Shown here one piece after another: positions 14,937-20,866 of a stretch of 46,517 nt of DNA. This DNA comes from an uncultured bacterium. Lineage in GTDB: Bacteria; Patescibacteriota; Minisyncoccia; Phycocordibacterales; UBA6065. Both the position numbers and the translations under genes were made by a program. Numbering within the stretch: position 1 is the first letter of the stretch; the number at the start of each line of letters is the position of its first letter. The notes below the pieces were generated by a model. It saw only the letters and a program-made list of their open reading frames with translations, was not told the DNA's origin and did not search any database. The stretch lies in NCBI GenBank assembly GCA_966243015.1, contig CBIMES010000002.1, forward strand, positions 1 to 46,517, given 5' to 3'.

Positions 14937-15806
14937 CTAGAGACCCCTCTCCGCCTCGATGAAGGCGTCGAGGTCGCCCTCGAGGACAGCATCGACGTTC
15001 GAGGTCTCCACCTCGGTCCTGTGGTCCTTGACCATCTTGTACGGATGCACGACGTAGGAGCGAATCTGATTGCCCCACTCGATGTCTGTGGTCTTGGAAA
15101 TATACATGCCTCGCTCCTTTGACCTCTGCTCATCCTGCTTCAGCTTGTAGAGCTTGGCCTGAAGGATATCCATGGCCTGGGCGCGGTTGTCCGCCTGAGA
15201 GCGCTCTGAATCGACGTGCACCGATATCTTGGTCGGTATGTGAATGAGGCGCACGGCAGTCTCGCGCTTGTTGACGTTCTGTCCGCCGGGACCGGATGAC
15301 CTGGCAAACTCCACGCGAAGCTCCTCGGGAGGAATGGAAACAAAGGTGAACTTCTCGAACTTCGGAATCACCTCGACGAGAGAGAACGAGGTATGCCTCT
15401 GCTTCTTGGCGTTGAAGGGCGAGATGCGGACGAGCCTATGCACGCCTGACTCGTTCTTGAGCGTGCCGTACGCGTTCTTGCCCGCGAGCTCGAGGGTGAC
15501 GTTGCGATAGCCGCCCCGCTCGTTCTTGTTCTGATGTATAAAGGTCACCCCCCACCCCTTTCGCGCCGCGTACTTGAGGTACATGTCGAGGAGAATGCGC
15601 GAGAAGTCCTCGGCGTCATCTCCGCCCGCCCCAGAGAATATGGTCATGACCGCGTTGCCGCGCTCGTACTTCTCAGTCTCGGCAAGAGCCGACTTGAGGT
15701 CATTGAGCTCGCGAAGTATATTCTGGGCCTTTTCCTTGCTCTCCCAGAAGGAGGCGTCGCTCATGAGATTCTCGATCTCCTCGATTCGTTTTCGCGGATC
15801 GTTCAT
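14937..15806 (-). CDS. prfB: Peptide chain release factor 2, short form
   Basis: GVHRLVRISPF (SPF), RHTSF, GPGGQNVNK, WGNQIRSY. Confidence 0.92.
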   Translation of the reverse strand: MNDPRKRIEEIENLMSDASFWESKEKAQNILRELNDLKSALAETEKYERGNAVMTIFSGAGGDDAEDFSRILLDMYLKYAARKGWGVTFIHQNKNERGGYRNVTLELAGKNAYGTLKNESGVHRLVRISPFNAKKQRHTSFSLVEVIPKFEKFTFVSIPPEELRVEFARSSGPGGQNVNKRETAVRLIHIPTKISVHVDSERSQADNRAQAMDILQAKLYKLKQDEQRSKERGMYISKTTDIEWGNQIRSYVVHPYKMVKDHRTEVETSNVDAVLEGDLDAFIEAERGL

Positions 15807-15807
15807 G

Positions 15808-15880
15808 AGCCACTTCCCGGGATCGAACCGGGGACCTCTACTTTACGAAAGTATTGCTCTACCAGCTGAGCTAAAGTGGC
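15808..15880 (-). tRNA. tRNA-Thr(CGT)
   Basis: Cloverleaf with GCCACTT/AAGTGGC acceptor, TT-CGT-AA loop, TTCGATC T-loop; CCA not encoded. Confidence 0.93.
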
Positions 15881-15899
15881 AGGTACCCTCCACTGTCTG

Positions 15900-16146
15900 A
15901 GCCAACGTCCGGGATCGAACCGGAGACCTCGTCATTCGTTTACACCTCACCTTGCGGGAGGACTAGACTGTATCTTTCTCCTGTTGCGAGGAGACCCTTG
16001 TCAGTCGTTCGGGCGCTGGGCGCCACGGTCTTAACCCAGAGGGTCTTTAACCGTTATTCGGGATTCACTGAGGCGTTACCGCCCCAGTGGGCAGGGTTTC
16101 TTACGAACCCACCAATGACGTGCTCTACCGACTGAGCTACGTTGGC
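15900..16146 (-). tRNA. tRNA-Thr(GGT), intron-containing (exons 16146-16111 and 15936-15900)
   Basis: Joined exons give a canonical 73-nt cloverleaf: GCCAACG/CGTTGGC acceptor, CGTCA-TT-GGT-AA-TGACG anticodon arm. Confidence 0.93.
15937..16110 (-). ncRNA. Group I self-splicing intron, 174 nt, inserted at tRNA position 36/37
   Basis: 5' exon ends in U, intron ends in G; P1 with U.G, P2 with GTAA loop, P4 ACGGT/ACCGT, P7 GACTG/CAGTC, S-element AAGATACAGTCT, P8, P9 with GCAA loop. Confidence 0.9.
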
Positions 16147-16187
16147 TTATTGCTGTTCCAAAAGAACGCCTCACAAGAATAGACTAT

Positions 16188-16781
16188 TCAGCGAATTTTA
16201 TCAATCATCTCACACATTTTCTCCTTTAATCTGACATTATTAAAGTAAACGATAACAACCCCGTGCTGGGACTTATTACGATACGTCCCAGGGCCCCTTA
16301 CGCGAGAAACCACCGGTTTATAGAACTGATCAAGGCCCACGGAAAGCTCATTAGCCCAATATCTAAGGGCTATTTCTGGATTCAAATCCTCAAACACCTG
16401 AACACTGAATCTTAGTCTCGATTTCTCGACCCCGCACATCCTTTCAAGGAATTCCATGAATTTCCTTACGAGGTGAGGATCGGTGTTGGTAAGCCTCATT
16501 CCGCCCCTGCCCCTCTTCAACCCCTCGCCCCAATACAAGCCAAGGCCCAAACCAAGCAATAAACTATCGTCCTGATTCCTTGGCTCTTTTATCAAGAATG
16601 GGTCACCCGAAGGATTTTTAAGCCTGTAAACAGCCTCGGAAATAGACCTCTTTTTGATACCGTGCTTTTCAAGCCAGTAATTGACTTTATTATTCGAACA
16701 ATTCAAAACGCCAGCGATCTGTGATGCTGACAGACCGCCTTCGACATAAAGGTGATTCAGTTCTTTGAACGAAATTTCCAC
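16188..16781 (-). CDS. HTH plus LAGLIDADG-like (homing endonuclease-fold) protein
   Basis: N-terminal LSASQIAGVLNCS..V.YWL HTH; LLGLGLGLYWGEG motif followed by RLTNTDP.LV..F..FL; visibly AT-richer than flanks. Confidence 0.65.
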   Translation of the reverse strand: MEISFKELNHLYVEGGLSASQIAGVLNCSNNKVNYWLEKHGIKKRSISEAVYRLKNPSGDPFLIKEPRNQDDSLLLGLGLGLYWGEGLKRGRGGMRLTNTDPHLVRKFMEFLERMCGVEKSRLRFSVQVFEDLNPEIALRYWANELSVGLDQFYKPVVSRVRGPGTYRNKSQHGVVIVYFNNVRLKEKMCEMIDKIR

Positions 16782-16822
16782 TCAACAAACATAGCAAATC
16801 GACGATAAAGACAGTATAAAAA

Positions 16823-17518
16823 TCAATAGAGGTCAGACTGTCTTTCGACCTCCCCCTCCCTGAACGCGTTCACGAGCAGGTGCGCGAGACGGGTCGGCTC
16901 TGGCAGGCGATACCCCTTGAGGCATCCGGTGACCACGTTCAGAGCGTCGCTCACGCTCACCTTGTGGCCCGGGGAAATGAAAAGCGGGTTCGATTTTTCC
17001 TTTGATTTGTAGACGTACCCAAGTGTCTCCCGCGTCACGGGATCAGCCAGAGGTGAGGCGTCGCCGACGACGCGAGGCTCTGAATGAACACCAAAGAGAA
17101 CCGACTTGGCGCAGCCGACGGTTGGTATGCCGCTTAGTATTCCGAGGTGCGTGGCTATACCGAGTCGGCGCGGATGGGCTATTCCCTGACCGTCTACCAT
17201 GATGAGATCAGGCCTGACCTTGAGCTTCTCGAGGCACTTCATGAGACCAGGGATCTCGCGGAACGAGAGCAGTCCCGGAATGTACGGAAACGTGACCTTC
17301 ATCTTGTGAACAGCGTGACCAAGGGGCCTCAGGTCAGGGTACGAGAGCAGGATAATTCCCGCGAAAAGCTCGTCGCCGAAGCGCTCGAGCGACACGTCAG
17401 CGCCAGCGATGATTTTGACCGTCGAGTCGAGGGACGAGAGGTCCACCCGCTCCCCAAGCGCCTTCTGTATGCGTATCGCCTCGGCCGGCGTCACGTCCCA
17501 TGAGTGAATGTGTGGCAT
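16823..17518 (-). CDS. nfi: Endonuclease V
   Basis: AGADVS, FPYIPGLLSFRE, VDGQGIAHPRRLGIA, GCAKS, RLPEPTRLAH. Confidence 0.95.
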   Translation of the reverse strand: MPHIHSWDVTPAEAIRIQKALGERVDLSSLDSTVKIIAGADVSLERFGDELFAGIILLSYPDLRPLGHAVHKMKVTFPYIPGLLSFREIPGLMKCLEKLKVRPDLIMVDGQGIAHPRRLGIATHLGILSGIPTVGCAKSVLFGVHSEPRVVGDASPLADPVTRETLGYVYKSKEKSNPLFISPGHKVSVSDALNVVTGCLKGYRLPEPTRLAHLLVNAFREGEVERQSDLY

Positions 17519-17546
17519 GGCTTCCTTACTTGAGCCCAGAATAGCA

Positions 17547-17575
17547 CGGAACCCGACACAGCGTGTCGGGTTTCG
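17547..17575 (-). terminator. Stem-loop immediately 3' of tRNA-Asp
   Basis: AACCCGACAC-AGC-GTGTCGGGTT inverted repeat. Confidence 0.55.
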
Positions 17576-17582
17576 TATCCTG

Positions 17583-17656
17583 CGCGAGTGATGGGACTCG
17601 AACCCACGGCCTCTTCCGTGACAGGGAAGCGCTCTAACCAGCTGAGCTACACCCGC
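17583..17656 (-). tRNA. tRNA-Asp(GTC)
   Basis: GCGGGTG/CACTCGC acceptor, CTTCC-CT-GTC-AC-GGAAG arm, G73. Confidence 0.93.
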
Positions 17657-17727
17657 AGGGCTTATATACTTACACAGCTATGCCGTGTACGCAACCATTT
17701 AAGCACGAAACGCCTAAAAAATCACGG

Positions 17728-17801
17728 TGTCGGCGGGAGGGATCGAACCTCCGACCTTGGGCTTATGAGTCCCACGCTCTAACCAACTGAGCTACGCCGA
17801 C
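17728..17801 (-). tRNA. tRNA with CAT anticodon (elongator Met or Ile2)
   Basis: Paired G1-C72 (GTCGGCG/CGCCGAC), CT-CAT-AA loop; Met versus Ile2 not resolvable by eye. Confidence 0.85.
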
Positions 17802-17951
17802 GTGAACCACACGATATCATAATCTGCTTGATTTTCCAAGGAAAATGATGCCCCGAGGGGTAGTTGAAAGAAAACGGACCCCCGCCCCGTATTATCAGTG
17901 TGTAGATAAGTAGTGGACTAGACGTTACGCCGAGCGTCCCCTCCACCCCAC

Positions 17952-17980
17952 GAAAAACGCCCTGAAGCCGGGCGTTTTTC
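17952..17980. terminator. Bidirectional intrinsic terminator
   Basis: GAAAAACGCCC-TGAAGCC-GGGCGTTTTTC. Confidence 0.7.
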
Positions 17981-18047
17981 TCTTGCCCTGGAAAGCGCCA
18001 ATAAAAAGCCCCGCCCTTTCAGGCAGAGGCTCTGTACTCGCGTGACG

Positions 18048-18545
18048 CTATGCAAGGGAGGCTTTGTATAGCCCAAGGTCAAATGCCCCACGAAGCTTAT
18101 AGGCGTCCCTCCAGGCTTTCCACCGCTCGTCGCGCTTCAGCACATTCGGGTCGGGACGGTAACGCCCTGTCGTAAACGCCGAAGTGAAAGCGTCGGAACG
18201 AGGAAGCAGGATCGCCGACAGGCTCAGAGAGTGCATGGGATAAGGGTCAATGATATGCCCAGACCTTGTCTCGAGCCAGGAATGCTGGCCCACCCAATAC
18301 TCATATTCGTTGCCTTTCTTGAGGACCATGCCTCCAAGCTCGCCGTCCACGAGACGGACTGACCCGTCTCGGATTTCCAAGACAAGCGCCCTGCAAATGG
18401 AGTGGCAGTTGAACGGAATACCCTTCAATCTCCTCGTCCTGTCGTCCTCGGGCCTCCTCACCGACTGTAAAAGACCTGTCACCGTTTCCAGGATTTTCCA
18501 GTCTTCCTGAGAGACGGCGCTGTAAACTGCGTCACAGTAAAACAT
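18048..18545 (-). CDS. Hypothetical protein with CH / HSW / IIDP motifs (possible transglutaminase/papain-like triad)
   Basis: ATG 18545 with upstream AAGGA and TTGACA (18611-18616); NCHSIC, QHSWLE, HIIDPY. Confidence 0.55.
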   Translation of the reverse strand: MFYCDAVYSAVSQEDWKILETVTGLLQSVRRPEDDRTRRLKGIPFNCHSICRALVLEIRDGSVRLVDGELGGMVLKKGNEYEYWVGQHSWLETRSGHIIDPYPMHSLSLSAILLPRSDAFTSAFTTGRYRPDPNVLKRDERWKAWRDAYKLRGAFDLGLYKASLA

Positions 18546-18634
18546 CTGTTTCCTTGGTTGAGTGTTTGAATGATCTAACTTGTTTAAGAAATTACAACAA
18601 ATAATCACTTTGTCAATAAACATCCTGTTCCAAG

Positions 18635-18665
18635 AGAAAAGCCAGGCGTTACGCCTGGCTTTTCT
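18635..18665. terminator. Intrinsic terminator after initiator tRNA
   Basis: AGAAAAGCCAGGCG-TTA-CGCCTGGCTTTTCT. Confidence 0.8.
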
Positions 18666-18673
18666 GTTACGTG

Positions 18674-18744
18674 TTGCGGGGGGTGGAATTGAACCACCTC
18701 CTACAGGTTATGAGCCTGTCGAGCTACCGGTGCTCTACCCCGCT
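18674..18744 (-). tRNA. Initiator tRNA-fMet(CAT)
   Basis: 1:72 mismatch (AGCGGGG/CCCCGCA), GAGC/GCTC D-stem of initiator type, CT-CAT-AA loop. Confidence 0.85.
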
Positions 18745-18841
18745 ATCGCCTCCCAGATAGAGAGACTAATAGTATACAACGGCATAAAATTTGATGCAAG
18801 ACCCTCGGGGCCGCAAAGTGCCGGCCGCTGACCCAGCCCGC

Positions 18842-19426
18842 CTAGATATAGTAGAATTCGCTGAAAACCTTCTTGTAGAGGCCTATAATGCGCTTCGCAT
18901 CCCGCTCGTTCAGCTGGAAGTCGCTTCCCTGGTGCGCGATCTGGTTTCGCACCTTGTGGGCCTCCCAGGCATCGTTGAGCGTCAGGAAGTCGCTCGGCTC
19001 CACGCCCTTGAGCTGCTCGCCAATCGAGTCCCCCTGATAACCCATCTTGGTCAGGATGTCGGCGAGCATGATGTCAGCCTCCATGATGGCTAGCCTCCAA
19101 TCCGAAGGATTCGCGGAGTTGATGTGGGCCTCGACGCGCTGCCACTTCTGGTTGAGGACAGGGTCGGCGGCACCCTTCTCGTTCACCGCCTCCTTCACCC
19201 GAAGCGAGTGGAACTTCTGCTCCTGGATCCCCTCGAGCTGCTTCAGTCGAATGCGGGCGTAGACGATAACGTAGAAAAGGAAGAGCGTAAAGACGATGGC
19301 GAACGGAGTGATGATCTCGACGACGCGGATGAGAACGTTGAGCCAGGCGACAATGTCGAACCCCTTGAGGATCTCCCCGAGGCGCAGAAAGATGTATTCG
19401 ATATTAAGGAAGTTTATGGCATCCAT
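18842..19426 (-). CDS. Membrane-anchored protein with HEPN-like RxxxxH motif
   Basis: N-terminal TM; AIMEAD and AHKVRNQIAH. Confidence 0.65.
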   Translation of the reverse strand: MDAINFLNIEYIFLRLGEILKGFDIVAWLNVLIRVVEIITPFAIVFTLFLFYVIVYARIRLKQLEGIQEQKFHSLRVKEAVNEKGAADPVLNQKWQRVEAHINSANPSDWRLAIMEADIMLADILTKMGYQGDSIGEQLKGVEPSDFLTLNDAWEAHKVRNQIAHQGSDFQLNERDAKRIIGLYKKVFSEFYYI

Positions 19427-19447
19427 GCTTCCCTTATTCTACACCCT

Positions 19448-20866
19448 CTAGGCCTTTTCGCCGAGGAACGCCTTGCCGAGGGCGAAGAGGACGTCCTCCC
19501 TGCCCTGGGCGGCGACGAGCTGCATGCCAATCGGAAGCTTGATGCCGTCAACATTCTTCTCGCCCGCCGGGATAGAGATGGCTGGGATGCCCACGAGATT
19601 TGCCGTCACGGTGAAAATGTCCTCGAGGTACATGGCGACCGGGTCAGAGACCTTCTCCCCTATCTTGAAAGCCGGCGCAGGCGCGGTCGGCGTGATGATG
19701 GCGTCGACGCCGGCGAACGCCTTCGCGAAATCGGCCTTGAGCAACTCCCGTACGGCGTTCGCCTTGTTGTAGTACGCGTCGTAGTAGCCCGACGAGAGCA
19801 CGTAGGCGCCGAGCATGATGCGGCGGCGCGCCTCGCGGCCAAAGAGATCGCCTCGGGTGAGGAAGTAATCCTCGGTAAGGTCCTTGCCGTCCTTGTGGGC
19901 GCCGTACTTCACGCCGTCAAAGCGCGAGAGGTTGGTCGACACCTCGGCGAACATGAGCACGTAGTATACGGCGAGCGAGTACTCGATATGCGGGAGTTCG
20001 ATATCCTTCACCTCGAAACCAAGGGCCTTGAATTTCTCGAGAGATGCCTCGAACGCGGACATAACCGCAGGGTCAATGCCGTCACCCTTGAGGAAGGCGC
20101 GTGGGACACCGATGACAGGCTTTCGCGGGGACGCCGGTCGAAGGGCGTCGACGTCAATAGACGTGCTGTCGTACGAGTCCTTGCCTTTCATGGCATTGAA
20201 GAGGATCTCGGCGTCGGTAACGGTCTTGGTAACAGGGCCGATGACGTCGAGGGACGAGCCCATAGCCATGAGGCCGTGTCGCGAAATGGAGCCGTAGGTC
20301 GGCTTGAGCCCGACCACGCCACAGTAGCTCGCCGGCTGGCGAACGGAACCGCCCGTATCAGAGCCAAGCGACGCAATGGCCATGTCGCCCGCCACGGCAG
20401 CGGCCGAACCGCCCGACGAACCGCCCGAGACACGAGAGAGATCGCGCGGATTCTTGGTCACGCCATACGCGGAGTTCTCGGTCGAGCCGCCCATGGCGAA
20501 CTCGTCCATGTTCACGCGGCCGATGAAGACGGCACCCGCCTCCTTGAGCTTGGCGATGGCGGTCGCGTCGTACGGTCCGACGTATCCCTCGAGAATCTGC
20601 GAGGCAGAGCCGACCTTCCTTCCCTTCACGAGAATGTTGTCCTTGACGGCAATCGGAATGCCGGCGAGCATATTGTCTGCAGAGACTTTCTTCTGCGCGG
20701 CTTCCGCCTGGGCCATGACGTCGTCATAGACCTCGAGGTACGCGTGAATGTCGCCGTCCTTTGCGGCAATCGCCTTGAGATGCGCGTCGGCGAGGTCTCG
20801 GGTGGTGAAGTCCCCCTTTACGAGTCCCTCGTGAGCTGAAACGATAGTGAGTTTGGTGAGATCCAT
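19448..20866 (-). CDS. gatA: Asp/Glu-tRNA amidotransferase subunit A
   Basis: NMDEFAMGGSTENS, GGSSGGS, GSDTGGSVRQPA, RRIMLGAYVLSSGYYDAYY. Confidence 0.97.
   Translation of the reverse strand: MDLTKLTIVSAHEGLVKGDFTTRDLADAHLKAIAAKDGDIHAYLEVYDDVMAQAEAAQKKVSADNMLAGIPIAVKDNILVKGRKVGSASQILEGYVGPYDATAIAKLKEAGAVFIGRVNMDEFAMGGSTENSAYGVTKNPRDLSRVSGGSSGGSAAAVAGDMAIASLGSDTGGSVRQPASYCGVVGLKPTYGSISRHGLMAMGSSLDVIGPVTKTVTDAEILFNAMKGKDSYDSTSIDVDALRPASPRKPVIGVPRAFLKGDGIDPAVMSAFEASLEKFKALGFEVKDIELPHIEYSLAVYYVLMFAEVSTNLSRFDGVKYGAHKDGKDLTEDYFLTRGDLFGREARRRIMLGAYVLSSGYYDAYYNKANAVRELLKADFAKAFAGVDAIITPTAPAPAFKIGEKVSDPVAMYLEDIFTVTANLVGIPAISIPAGEKNVDGIKLPIGMQLVAAQGREDVLFALGKAFLGEKA

Follow-up and report, generated by a model that had tools for sequence, protein, structure and literature searches.

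How does a group I intron that encodes no protein come to sit in a bacterial tRNA gene, and how does it move from one genome to the next? The question is pertinent because bacterial tRNA group I introns usually have no endonuclease gene in them, which leaves their movement unclear. It is raised here by a 46,517-nucleotide (nt) stretch of DNA from an uncultured bacterium of the Patescibacteriota (contig CBIMES010000002.1, assembly GCA_966243015.1), referred to below as the window. In this stretch an intron-containing tRNA-Thr(GGU) gene lies directly downstream of a free-standing gene for a 197-residue protein with a helix-turn-helix (HTH) and a single LAGLIDADG-like motif. The original prediction for this DNA suggested that the two form a tRNA-targeted selfish module, in which the protein either cuts intron-less tRNA-Thr alleles or assists splicing. 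Our follow-up suggests an answer along the first of these lines: the gene is probably a free-standing one for a homing endonuclease that acts as a homodimer, and it would spread jointly with the neighboring intron through break repair. The features on which the argument is built are the following (all on the minus strand).

16188 to 16781, minus strand: free-standing HTH and single-LAGLIDADG gene, 197 amino acids, GTG start, TGA stop
16617 to 16781, minus strand: N-terminal HTH region, about residues 1 to 55, from weak Pfam and structural matches
16191 to 16604, minus strand: predicted LAGLIDADG-fold domain, residues 60 to 197, from the domain model and VIA-align
16521 to 16574, minus strand: LAGLIDADG motif helix, residues 70 to 87, with E86 invariant
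16111 to 16146, minus strand: tRNA-Thr(GGU) 5′ exon, 36 nt, last base anticodon U36
15937 to 16110, minus strand: group I intron without an open reading frame (ORF), 174 nt, P1 with U·G, P2 to P9, terminal G
15900 to 15936, minus strand: tRNA-Thr(GGU) 3′ exon, 37 nt, CCA not encoded

The split tRNA-Thr(GGU) and its linkage to the upstream gene

The tRNA-Thr(GGU) gene (15900-16146) is interrupted after U36, i.e., between tRNA positions 36 and 37, and the 37-nt 3′ exon re-forms the anticodon stem with the 5′ exon. The 174-nt insertion begins with GGGUUCG, ends in G, and carries no ORF on its own strand, as the original prediction held. We extracted 38 homologous introns of 174 to 243 nt, among which that of the window is the shortest, and all 38 end in G. 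RNAalifold on 35 of them gave 51 pairs, 32 with compensatory changes. The P3 pseudoknot was then put in by hand and covariation recounted on the same 35 introns, resulting in 54 pairs in 10 helices that are 95.9% paired; 33 of the 54 have changed on both sides, and none of 500 shuffles reaches the observed values. Controls with slid partners pair only to 34 to 46%. P3 itself has two compensatory cells, the U·G in P1 at the 5′ splice site (columns 12/33) is invariant (35 of 35), and P2, P4, P5, P6, P7, P8, and P9 are all present. Moreover, the anticodon stem pairs across the intron, with both-side changes in four of its five pairs. The insertion is a real, compact group I intron with a complete, covarying core.

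Standard annotation passes over this gene. ARAGORN misses the split tRNA, an Rfam scan of 15000-19500 at E ≤ 1 matched neither the intron nor the tRNA, and a narrower Rfam scan gave 14.7 bits for the tRNA 5′ half. The window intron scores 9.7 bits (E 5.5) with Intron_gpI (RF00028), against a gathering cut-off of 50. The only tRNA-Thr(GGU) of such genomes is thus missed by standard tRNA and Rfam scans. The genome in question is 730 kb and 99.86% complete, ARAGORN lists 40 tRNAs in it, and no second tRNA-Thr(GGU) is among these 40. As the sole tRNA-Thr(GGU) of a nearly complete genome, the split gene presumably works, which supports self-splicing of the intron indirectly. Four DNA runs that were compared show the window's own contigs and, in run X3, one 221-nt contig that joins across the intron position with 90 to 95% likeness; this contig represents the intron-less tRNA-Thr of another organism and no polymorphism of the strain. 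A second ORF-less group I-like intron is found elsewhere in the genome (C4:14797-15019, minus strand; 36.8 bits with RF00028, below the cut-off), seemingly in a 23S rRNA gene as judged by eye from its flanks.

How tightly gene and intron are linked was assessed in 29 genomes of the window's family and in an even sample of 401 genomes of its class. In the class sample the Thr-type gene was scored at E ≤ 1e-30, and the intron by an invariant 15-nt stretch of its core, which occurs once each in 36 of the 401 genomes and, as a reversed control, in none. The gene is found in 21 of the 401 genomes, belonging to 20 of 283 genera. Both elements are present in 16 genomes, the gene alone in 5, the intron alone in 20, and neither in 360, which corresponds to an odds ratio of 57.6 (Fisher p 7e-15, uncorrected for relatedness). 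The co-occurrence is spread over 15 or more genera. All 20 intron-only loci are tRNA-Thr(GGU) genes split at the identical position.

An intron-containing tRNA-Thr(GGU) adjoins 21 of 27 Thr-type gene copies. Besides the window's own, 20 gene loci come from the class sample; the gene stands just before an intron-containing tRNA at 14 of these, after one at a single locus, and before an intron-less tRNA at 5. The single locus with the gene after the tRNA (G221, loci L059/L094) has the order split tRNA-Thr(GGU), endonuclease gene, tRNA-Thr(CGU), so that the gene there is docked before tRNA-Thr(CGU), about 100 nt from the intron-containing tRNA.

In the family sample 13 of 29 genomes have a match to the protein. 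A close ortholog is present in 4 of them (G000, G022, G024, and G027); the remaining matches are paralogs of 22 to 37% identity, often several per genome. Within the window's genus 4 of 22 genomes have the gene. BLAST with the split tRNA gene detects the intron-containing allele in 8 genomes (the four ortholog carriers and G016, G019, G023, and G028), contiguous exon halves and thus an intron-less gene in 14, and the 5′ half only in one more. Of the 8 intron carriers, 4 have the Thr-type gene, and no intron-less genome does. The other four carriers (G016, G019, G023, and G028) lack it, although the intron interrupts the sole copy of tRNA-Thr(GGU) detected in them.

Some of the intron-only alleles retain pieces of the gene. 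The closest relative of the window genome, G023, has a split tRNA that is 94% identical to the window's, while the ORF and the neighboring nfi gene are both missing at the site; about the last 11 codons of the ORF are left, directly after a tRNA-Asp terminator, and this remnant is a deletion footprint. Gene fragments also lie upstream at 3 of the 20 intron-only class loci, covering residues 1-68 (G079), residues 84-193 (G145; E 1.6e-29, just under the cut-off for the gene), and residues 166-196 (G181, a 3′ remnant). The G027 copy is truncated at its N-terminus. Of the five class genes at intron-less tRNAs, the G201 copy is interrupted by an in-frame TAG, the G150 copy has another residue in place of the invariant Lys, and three are seemingly intact; the tRNAs of two intron-less carriers (G302 and G150) have unusual D-arms. 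At one further locus (L106 in G247, about 334-700) a tRNA-Thr(GGU) that is intact and has no intron immediately precedes an intron-containing copy with a degenerate-looking 5′ exon; a new copy may here have taken the place of the split gene.

The HTH-LAGLIDADG protein, its family, and its locus

The protein consists of an N-terminal HTH and one LAGLIDADG-fold domain, has its acidic residue intact, and lies outside current Pfam models. The motif helix ends in GLGLGLYWGEG (residues 77-87), i.e., an acidic residue followed by Gly, with GLYWGEG at residues 81-87 and TNTD at residues 98-101. Pfam gives weak, sub-threshold matches to HTH_23, Sigma70_r4_2, and GerE at residues 11-38; in several paralogs HTH_23 is above its cut-off, and one paralog matches Hom_end at E 0.11. 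The domain composition claimed at the outset, an HTH and a single LAGLIDADG-like motif, agrees with these motifs and HTH matches and with the VIA-align results below.

The AlphaFold2 models are confident, with a predicted local distance difference test score (pLDDT) of 91.4 over the full length and 92.2 in the separate model of residues 60-197. When the domain model was compared with 48,161 PDB representatives by VIA-align, 9 of the 10 best matches were LAGLIDADG-fold proteins. The best is the TliVMA intein endonuclease (7qsu_A; root-mean-square deviation, rmsd, 2.5 Å over 86 residues), with a Z of 8.9 that barely exceeds the best Z commonly seen, 7 to 8. It is followed by WhiA (6.8), I-DmoI (6.7), E-DreI (6.3), I-Tsp061I (6.0), WhiA again (5.6 and 5.5), an intein endonuclease (5.5), and I-Vdi141I (5.5), while I-CeuI, PI-PfuI, I-MsoI, I-CreI, PI-SceI, and I-WcaI score 4.0 to 4.4. 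Residues 1-45 match HTH DNA-binding domains (Z about 5-6.4). At the sequence level, a profile of orthologs and paralogs matches I-DmoI weakly at the motif region (E 0.08-0.1), and with the ortholog-only profile no LAGLIDADG chain was retrieved from the PDB.

Dimer prediction for the domain (residues 60-197) pairs two copies symmetrically along the motif helix, with a score of 0.79 relative to 0.10 for the best control. Among proteins of solved structure, 20 of 30 pairs of one chain reach the mark applied to this score, as does 1 of 23 single chains. The dimer runs have at least 95% of contacts in common, with a partner pLDDT of at least 83, and the predicted interface comprises residues 67, 69-82, 84-86, 99, 103-107, and 196-197. 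The prediction may pass because of its likeness to solved LAGLIDADG dimers.

The family to which the protein belongs is large. At E ≤ 1e-3 there are 593 homologs among 90% clusters, none with a Pfam domain on record and all those named called "hypothetical" except for one "DNA-binding Lrp-type protein"; among 50% clusters there are 7486 representatives at E ≤ 1e-3 and 2199 at E ≤ 1e-10. In 36 orthologs (46-68% identity) 27 columns are invariant, including G77, G79, G81, Y83, W84, G85, E86, G87, R96, N99, Q128, W142, K170, and G174. The window ORF is full length and has all 27, and the equivalent of E86 is kept in 27 of 27 Thr-type copies. The gene is present in a single copy in its genome, where PF14528 and PF00961 have no match, so there is no canonical LAGLIDADG protein in the genome for comparison. 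Two Arg(UCG)-linked paralogs (L014 and L016) lack the acidic motif residue (LFWAHGSK and LCLVGGVK); with respect to the tRNA both orientations are seen, and these paralogs are candidates for inactivated or domesticated members. A further group of proteins (P0132, P0135, P0145, P0149, and others) has about 260-820 residues with 5-14 tandem modules of about 50 residues that correspond to the HTH of this family. They match without the LAGLIDADG domain, and this looks like an HTH-repeat architecture.

What unites the family is its position at tRNA genes. We inspected 25 homolog loci besides that of the window, 22 from the 29 family genomes and 3 from public contigs. In 24 of them the ORF has a tRNA gene at its 3′ end, co-oriented in 20 and convergent in 4, and at the 25th locus a tRNA is found 77 nt upstream of the ORF start. 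The distance between ORF and tRNA is at most about 105 nt, and the ORF often overlaps the tRNA by 10-38 nt. As background, 15 of 590 crude ORFs of at least 150 residues in the window's genome have a tRNA in the equivalent position. In a maximum-likelihood tree of 26 members (one row trimmed of read-through residues) each tRNA identity forms one clade: Thr-GGU, Ile-UAU, Gln-UUG, Trp-CCA, Arg-CCU, Arg-UCG, and Tyr-GUA, while Gly, Val, and Met are represented by one row each. For 11 tRNA labels, 10 changes suffice on this tree, the lowest number possible, and none of 200 shuffles is as low. The protein thus belongs to a very large Patescibacteria superfamily in which each clade is docked at one tRNA gene. 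At 19 of 19 non-Thr loci the neighboring tRNA is intact and has no intron, so that the family-wide association is with tRNA genes and not with introns. The proposed association of homologs with tRNA or intron loci hence holds for tRNAs, whereas introns are no family-wide partner.

Docking can be very close. In many Thr-type copies (L060, L061, L065, L069, L071, and L072) the TAG stop codon is formed by tRNA nucleotides 8-10, and the last codons of the protein are therefore encoded by the tRNA acceptor stem. At two loci (L005, about 2083-2187, and L074, about 2101-2240) the interval from the endonuclease gene to the genuine tRNA holds two or three degenerate tandem repeats of roughly the first 30 nt of tRNA-Thr, covering the acceptor and D-arm. 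Repeated insertion or repair at the 5′ end of the tRNA may have left them as scars.

The surroundings of the gene in the window are as follows.

16788 to 16796, minus strand: extended -10-like string TGCTATGTT, read from the sequence, pattern only
16176 to 16204, minus strand: promoter-like TTGATA-17 nt-TATTCT upstream of the tRNA, 9 of 12 consensus matches
16823 to 17518, minus strand: nfi, endonuclease V, upstream neighbor of the 197-residue ORF (Pfam PF04493, E 1e-67)
15807 to 15880, minus strand: tRNA-Thr(CGU), next downstream gene (ARAGORN and Rfam)
14937 to 15806, minus strand: release-factor gene, beyond tRNA-Thr(CGU)

On the minus strand the order is hence nfi, the 197-residue ORF, a 41-nt spacer, the split tRNA-Thr(GGU), tRNA-Thr(CGU), and the release-factor gene. 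The spacer runs from the end of the ORF stop codon (16188) to the tRNA 5′ end (16146). The GC content is 0.41-0.485 over 16100-16799 relative to 0.565-0.59 in the flanks, in keeping with the earlier description of an AT-rich gene 41 nt before the split tRNA on the same strand. That description also gave the gene an extended -10 element of its own. The string TGCTATGTT (16796-16788) is indeed present, 6 nt before the GTG, but a two-hexamer consensus scan did not call it as a promoter. No terminator was found between nfi and the ORF. The -35 hexamer of the promoter-like site of the tRNA (TTGATA) falls inside the last codons of the ORF, and relatives likewise have a TTGA..TA..CT-like block before the tRNA, whether or not the ORF is there. 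That the ORF is part of the tRNA 5′ leader, to be removed by RNase P, was considered and rejected at the window locus, where the conserved promoter-like site intervenes; such removal is possible for paralogs whose ORF overlaps the tRNA.

Elsewhere in the window an AT-rich ORF of 191 residues (18048-18623, minus strand, GC about 0.43-0.47) begins some 50 nt past tRNA-Met (18673-18744). Pfam gives no match for it at E ≤ 0.01, and it may represent a further tRNA-gene insertion of a different type. In the same genome ARAGORN lists a "tRNA-Stop" with the anticodon UUA (C2:160272-160345) and no tRNA-Lys(UUU); the former could be a miscall, an unusual tRNA, or a suppressor.

Probable joint homing and its alternatives

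The sporadic spread over genera, the differences between members of one genus, the foreign composition, the catalytic motif conserved in full-length copies, and the series of decayed copies together fit the life cycle of a homing endonuclease. The tight physical and statistical link to an ORF-less intron, in turn, matches collaborative homing. Nuclease activity, the cut site, and homing itself are what we infer from these patterns. In the model that we regard as probable, the protein would act as a homodimer with the LAGLIDADG helices as interface, bringing E86 of both subunits together as a metal-binding catalytic pair, while the N-terminal HTH would add DNA contacts. It would cut tRNA-Thr(GGU) loci that lack the element, and repair from a carrier chromosome would copy the gene and the ORF-less intron. 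As the intron lies 36 to about 180 nt from the gene, repair that copies one would usually copy the other. The intron would then self-splice from the pre-tRNA, keeping the only tRNA-Thr(GGU) functional, and later decay or deletion of the endonuclease gene would leave intron-only alleles.

Two candidate cut sites have roughly equal odds, the intron insertion site in the anticodon loop and the docking edge, i.e., the 5′ part or 5′ flank of the tRNA. A cut at the insertion site would be classical collaborative homing in which the intron confers immunity, whereas with a cut at the 5′ edge the intron would merely be co-converted. Since the anticodon stem is an inverted repeat around the insertion point, it would make an attractive target for a homodimer.

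A number of observations weigh against this model or parts of it. With respect to the protein, no Pfam LAGLIDADG_1/_2/_3 or Hom_end match was obtained at E ≤ 10 and NCBIfam gave nothing for it. Foldseek with both models found no LAGLIDADG match at E ≤ 1e-3; it ranks OmpA/YfiB/MotB-like domains first, with template modeling (TM) scores of 0.28-0.43 and an rmsd of 6-7 Å. An OmpA-like fold was nevertheless rejected, as its VIA-align Z is 4.5-4.8 relative to 5.5-8.9 for LAGLIDADG proteins and the motif and the dimer do not fit it. Because Foldseek did not rank LAGLIDADG proteins, support for an alpha-beta-beta-alpha-beta-beta-alpha LAGLIDADG fold of residues 60-197 is moderate. The structural check suggested with the original prediction hence gave a confident model with the LAGLIDADG fold as best by VIA-align, with which Foldseek disagrees. 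With respect to the linkage, related genomes are not independent and the odds ratio therefore overstates the association of gene and intron. The tRNA keeps its own promoter-like site, and ORF and tRNA thus need not be co-expressed. Moreover, 5 of the 21 class-sample carriers, and L002 in addition, are intron-less; in G096 the gene is seemingly intact, and the anticodon arm of its tRNA is identical to that which most intron-containing alleles form when their exons are joined. Such intact copies next to intron-less tRNAs speak against the intron as an obligatory protection, and the intron-less docking of all paralogs likewise argues against a need for the intron in self-protection. Finally, the strong conservation among orthologs would also fit a host function. 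The two-part module as first proposed is supported by the co-occurrence of gene and intron and, as expected for a selfish element, by the patchy distribution and the decayed copies.

A serious alternative to functional collaboration is independent tenancy. The gene would home alone to the 5′ edge of tRNA-Thr(GGU), the intron would spread or persist separately, and their co-occurrence would reflect a shared preference for this tRNA together with joint inheritance in the carrying lineages. The intron-less tRNAs at all 19 non-Thr loci are what this explanation expects, and so are the 20 of 36 intron carriers without the gene, the 5 of 21 gene carriers without the intron, and the G221 gene that stands after the split tRNA and not before it. 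However, the odds ratio, spread over 15 or more genera, speaks against it, and with the gene within about 36-180 nt of the intron, break repair would usually copy both. The gene remnants at 3 of the 20 intron-only class alleles, and at the G023 site in the family, also speak against it, and we consider independent tenancy unlikely.

Somewhat less likely still is domestication, in which the protein is an HTH and LAGLIDADG DNA-binding factor similar to WhiA, nuclease-dead or with a nuclease that is irrelevant, and regulates or protects tRNA genes. WhiA ranks high in the structural comparison (Z 6.8 and 5.5-5.6), conservation among orthologs is strong, the end of the ORF overlaps the -35 of the promoter-like site of the tRNA, and each clade is tied to one tRNA. 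Against this stand the sporadic occurrence (21 of the 401 class genomes and 4 of 22 genomes of the genus), the AT-rich, foreign-looking composition, and the copies that are truncated, interrupted by a stop, or deleted. In addition, all 27 Thr-type copies have retained the acidic motif residue, and the architecture, with one domain and an N-terminal HTH, is unlike that of WhiA.

Some LAGLIDADG proteins are maturases, and the protein might bind the intron RNA and help the minimal 174-nt ribozyme to fold and splice, as suggested originally. The shortness of this intron, the smallest of 38, and the adjacency of the two genes would suit such a role. Genomes with the intron alone make it unlikely: four of the eight family carriers (G016, G019, G023, and G028, with the intron in the only tRNA-Thr(GGU) copy found) and 20 of 36 class carriers do without the gene. 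In addition, paralogs adjoin intron-less tRNAs and the intron core is complete and covarying, so that the splicing role fares poorly and is very improbable. Equally improbable is a former homing endonuclease that is now inactive in the window genome and awaits decay, which would agree with the many relatives at various stages of decay and the single copy in the genome but not with a full-length frame, all 27 invariant residues, and a confident model.

Relation to known systems

Free-standing homing endonucleases, collaborative homing, tRNA group I introns, and LAGLIDADG enzymes in rRNA introns of the Candidate Phyla Radiation (CPR) are all known. The present analysis adds to these a quantitative measure of how gene and intron are linked at tRNA-Thr(GGU). 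A free-standing endonuclease gene that neighbors and co-occurs with the intron offers a testable answer to how such introns move. If correct, it would explain the spread of ORF-less tRNA introns among bacteria, extend collaborative homing from phages to cellular chromosomes, and provide a natural set of endonucleases with tRNA-gene specificities. The thousands of family clusters without a Pfam domain point to tRNA genes as a major, undescribed niche of homing endonucleases in Patescibacteria, and the family is a possible source of compact, sequence-specific nucleases. A literature search, with subscription journals and supplements outside its scope, returned no paper on endonuclease genes docked at bacterial or CPR tRNA genes and no description of collaborative homing in a cellular chromosome. 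That this is the first such case, with an HTH-LAGLIDADG superfamily homing on tRNA genes, one clade per tRNA, is put forward tentatively.

WhiA shares with the window protein a LAGLIDADG fold plus an HTH (Z 6.8). It is a conserved regulator with two degenerate LAGLIDADG domains and a C-terminal HTH; the window protein, in contrast, has one domain (60-197), an N-terminal HTH, the acidic residue, and a sporadic distribution. With I-CreI, I-MsoI, and I-CeuI it has in common one LAGLIDADG domain, an acidic residue at the helix end, and a symmetrical dimer, which in the window protein is predicted. In the CPR, insertions in rRNA genes mostly encode single-domain LAGLIDADG enzymes, of which I-ShaI cuts its insertion site and forms homodimers (PMC11270868); the words tRNA, HTH, helix-turn-helix, and free-standing are absent from the main text of that paper. 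Unlike enzymes of the I-CreI and I-ShaI types, the window gene is not intron-encoded, and its product has an extra N-terminal HTH and no Pfam LAGLIDADG match.

Endonucleases aimed at the anticodon region of tRNA have precedent in work cited by PMC3984707. With respect to the intron, some CPR tRNAs have group I introns (as noted in PMC8172020). Like known bacterial tRNA group I introns, that of the window is small, lies in the anticodon loop, and is flanked by exons that pair in the anticodon stem; it differs in its host, tRNA-Thr(GGU), its site after position 36, its length of 174 nt, and the endonuclease gene outside it.

The closest parallels for the arrangement as a whole are found in phages. 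The family resembles T4 SegB and other Seg/Mob enzymes, which home without introns, in having a free-standing endonuclease gene in a tRNA gene region and a presumed spread with its flanks by break repair (the SegB paper is cited by PMC3984707). SegB is a GIY-YIG enzyme of a phage, whereas the window family is LAGLIDADG-like and chromosomal, with one clade per tRNA identity. Collaborative homing is described for two phage systems, where a free-standing enzyme targets the intron insertion site (PMC3984707): F-CphI beside the ORF-less psbA intron of cyanophage S-PM2, and T4 mobE with the defunct I-TevIII intron. In comparison, the host in the window is a bacterial chromosome and the invaded gene that of a tRNA. 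The enzymes differ as well, F-CphI being Endo VII-like and mobE HNH, relative to the LAGLIDADG fold plus HTH of the window protein, and the window family, in contrast to the phage systems, has intact copies beside intron-less alleles.

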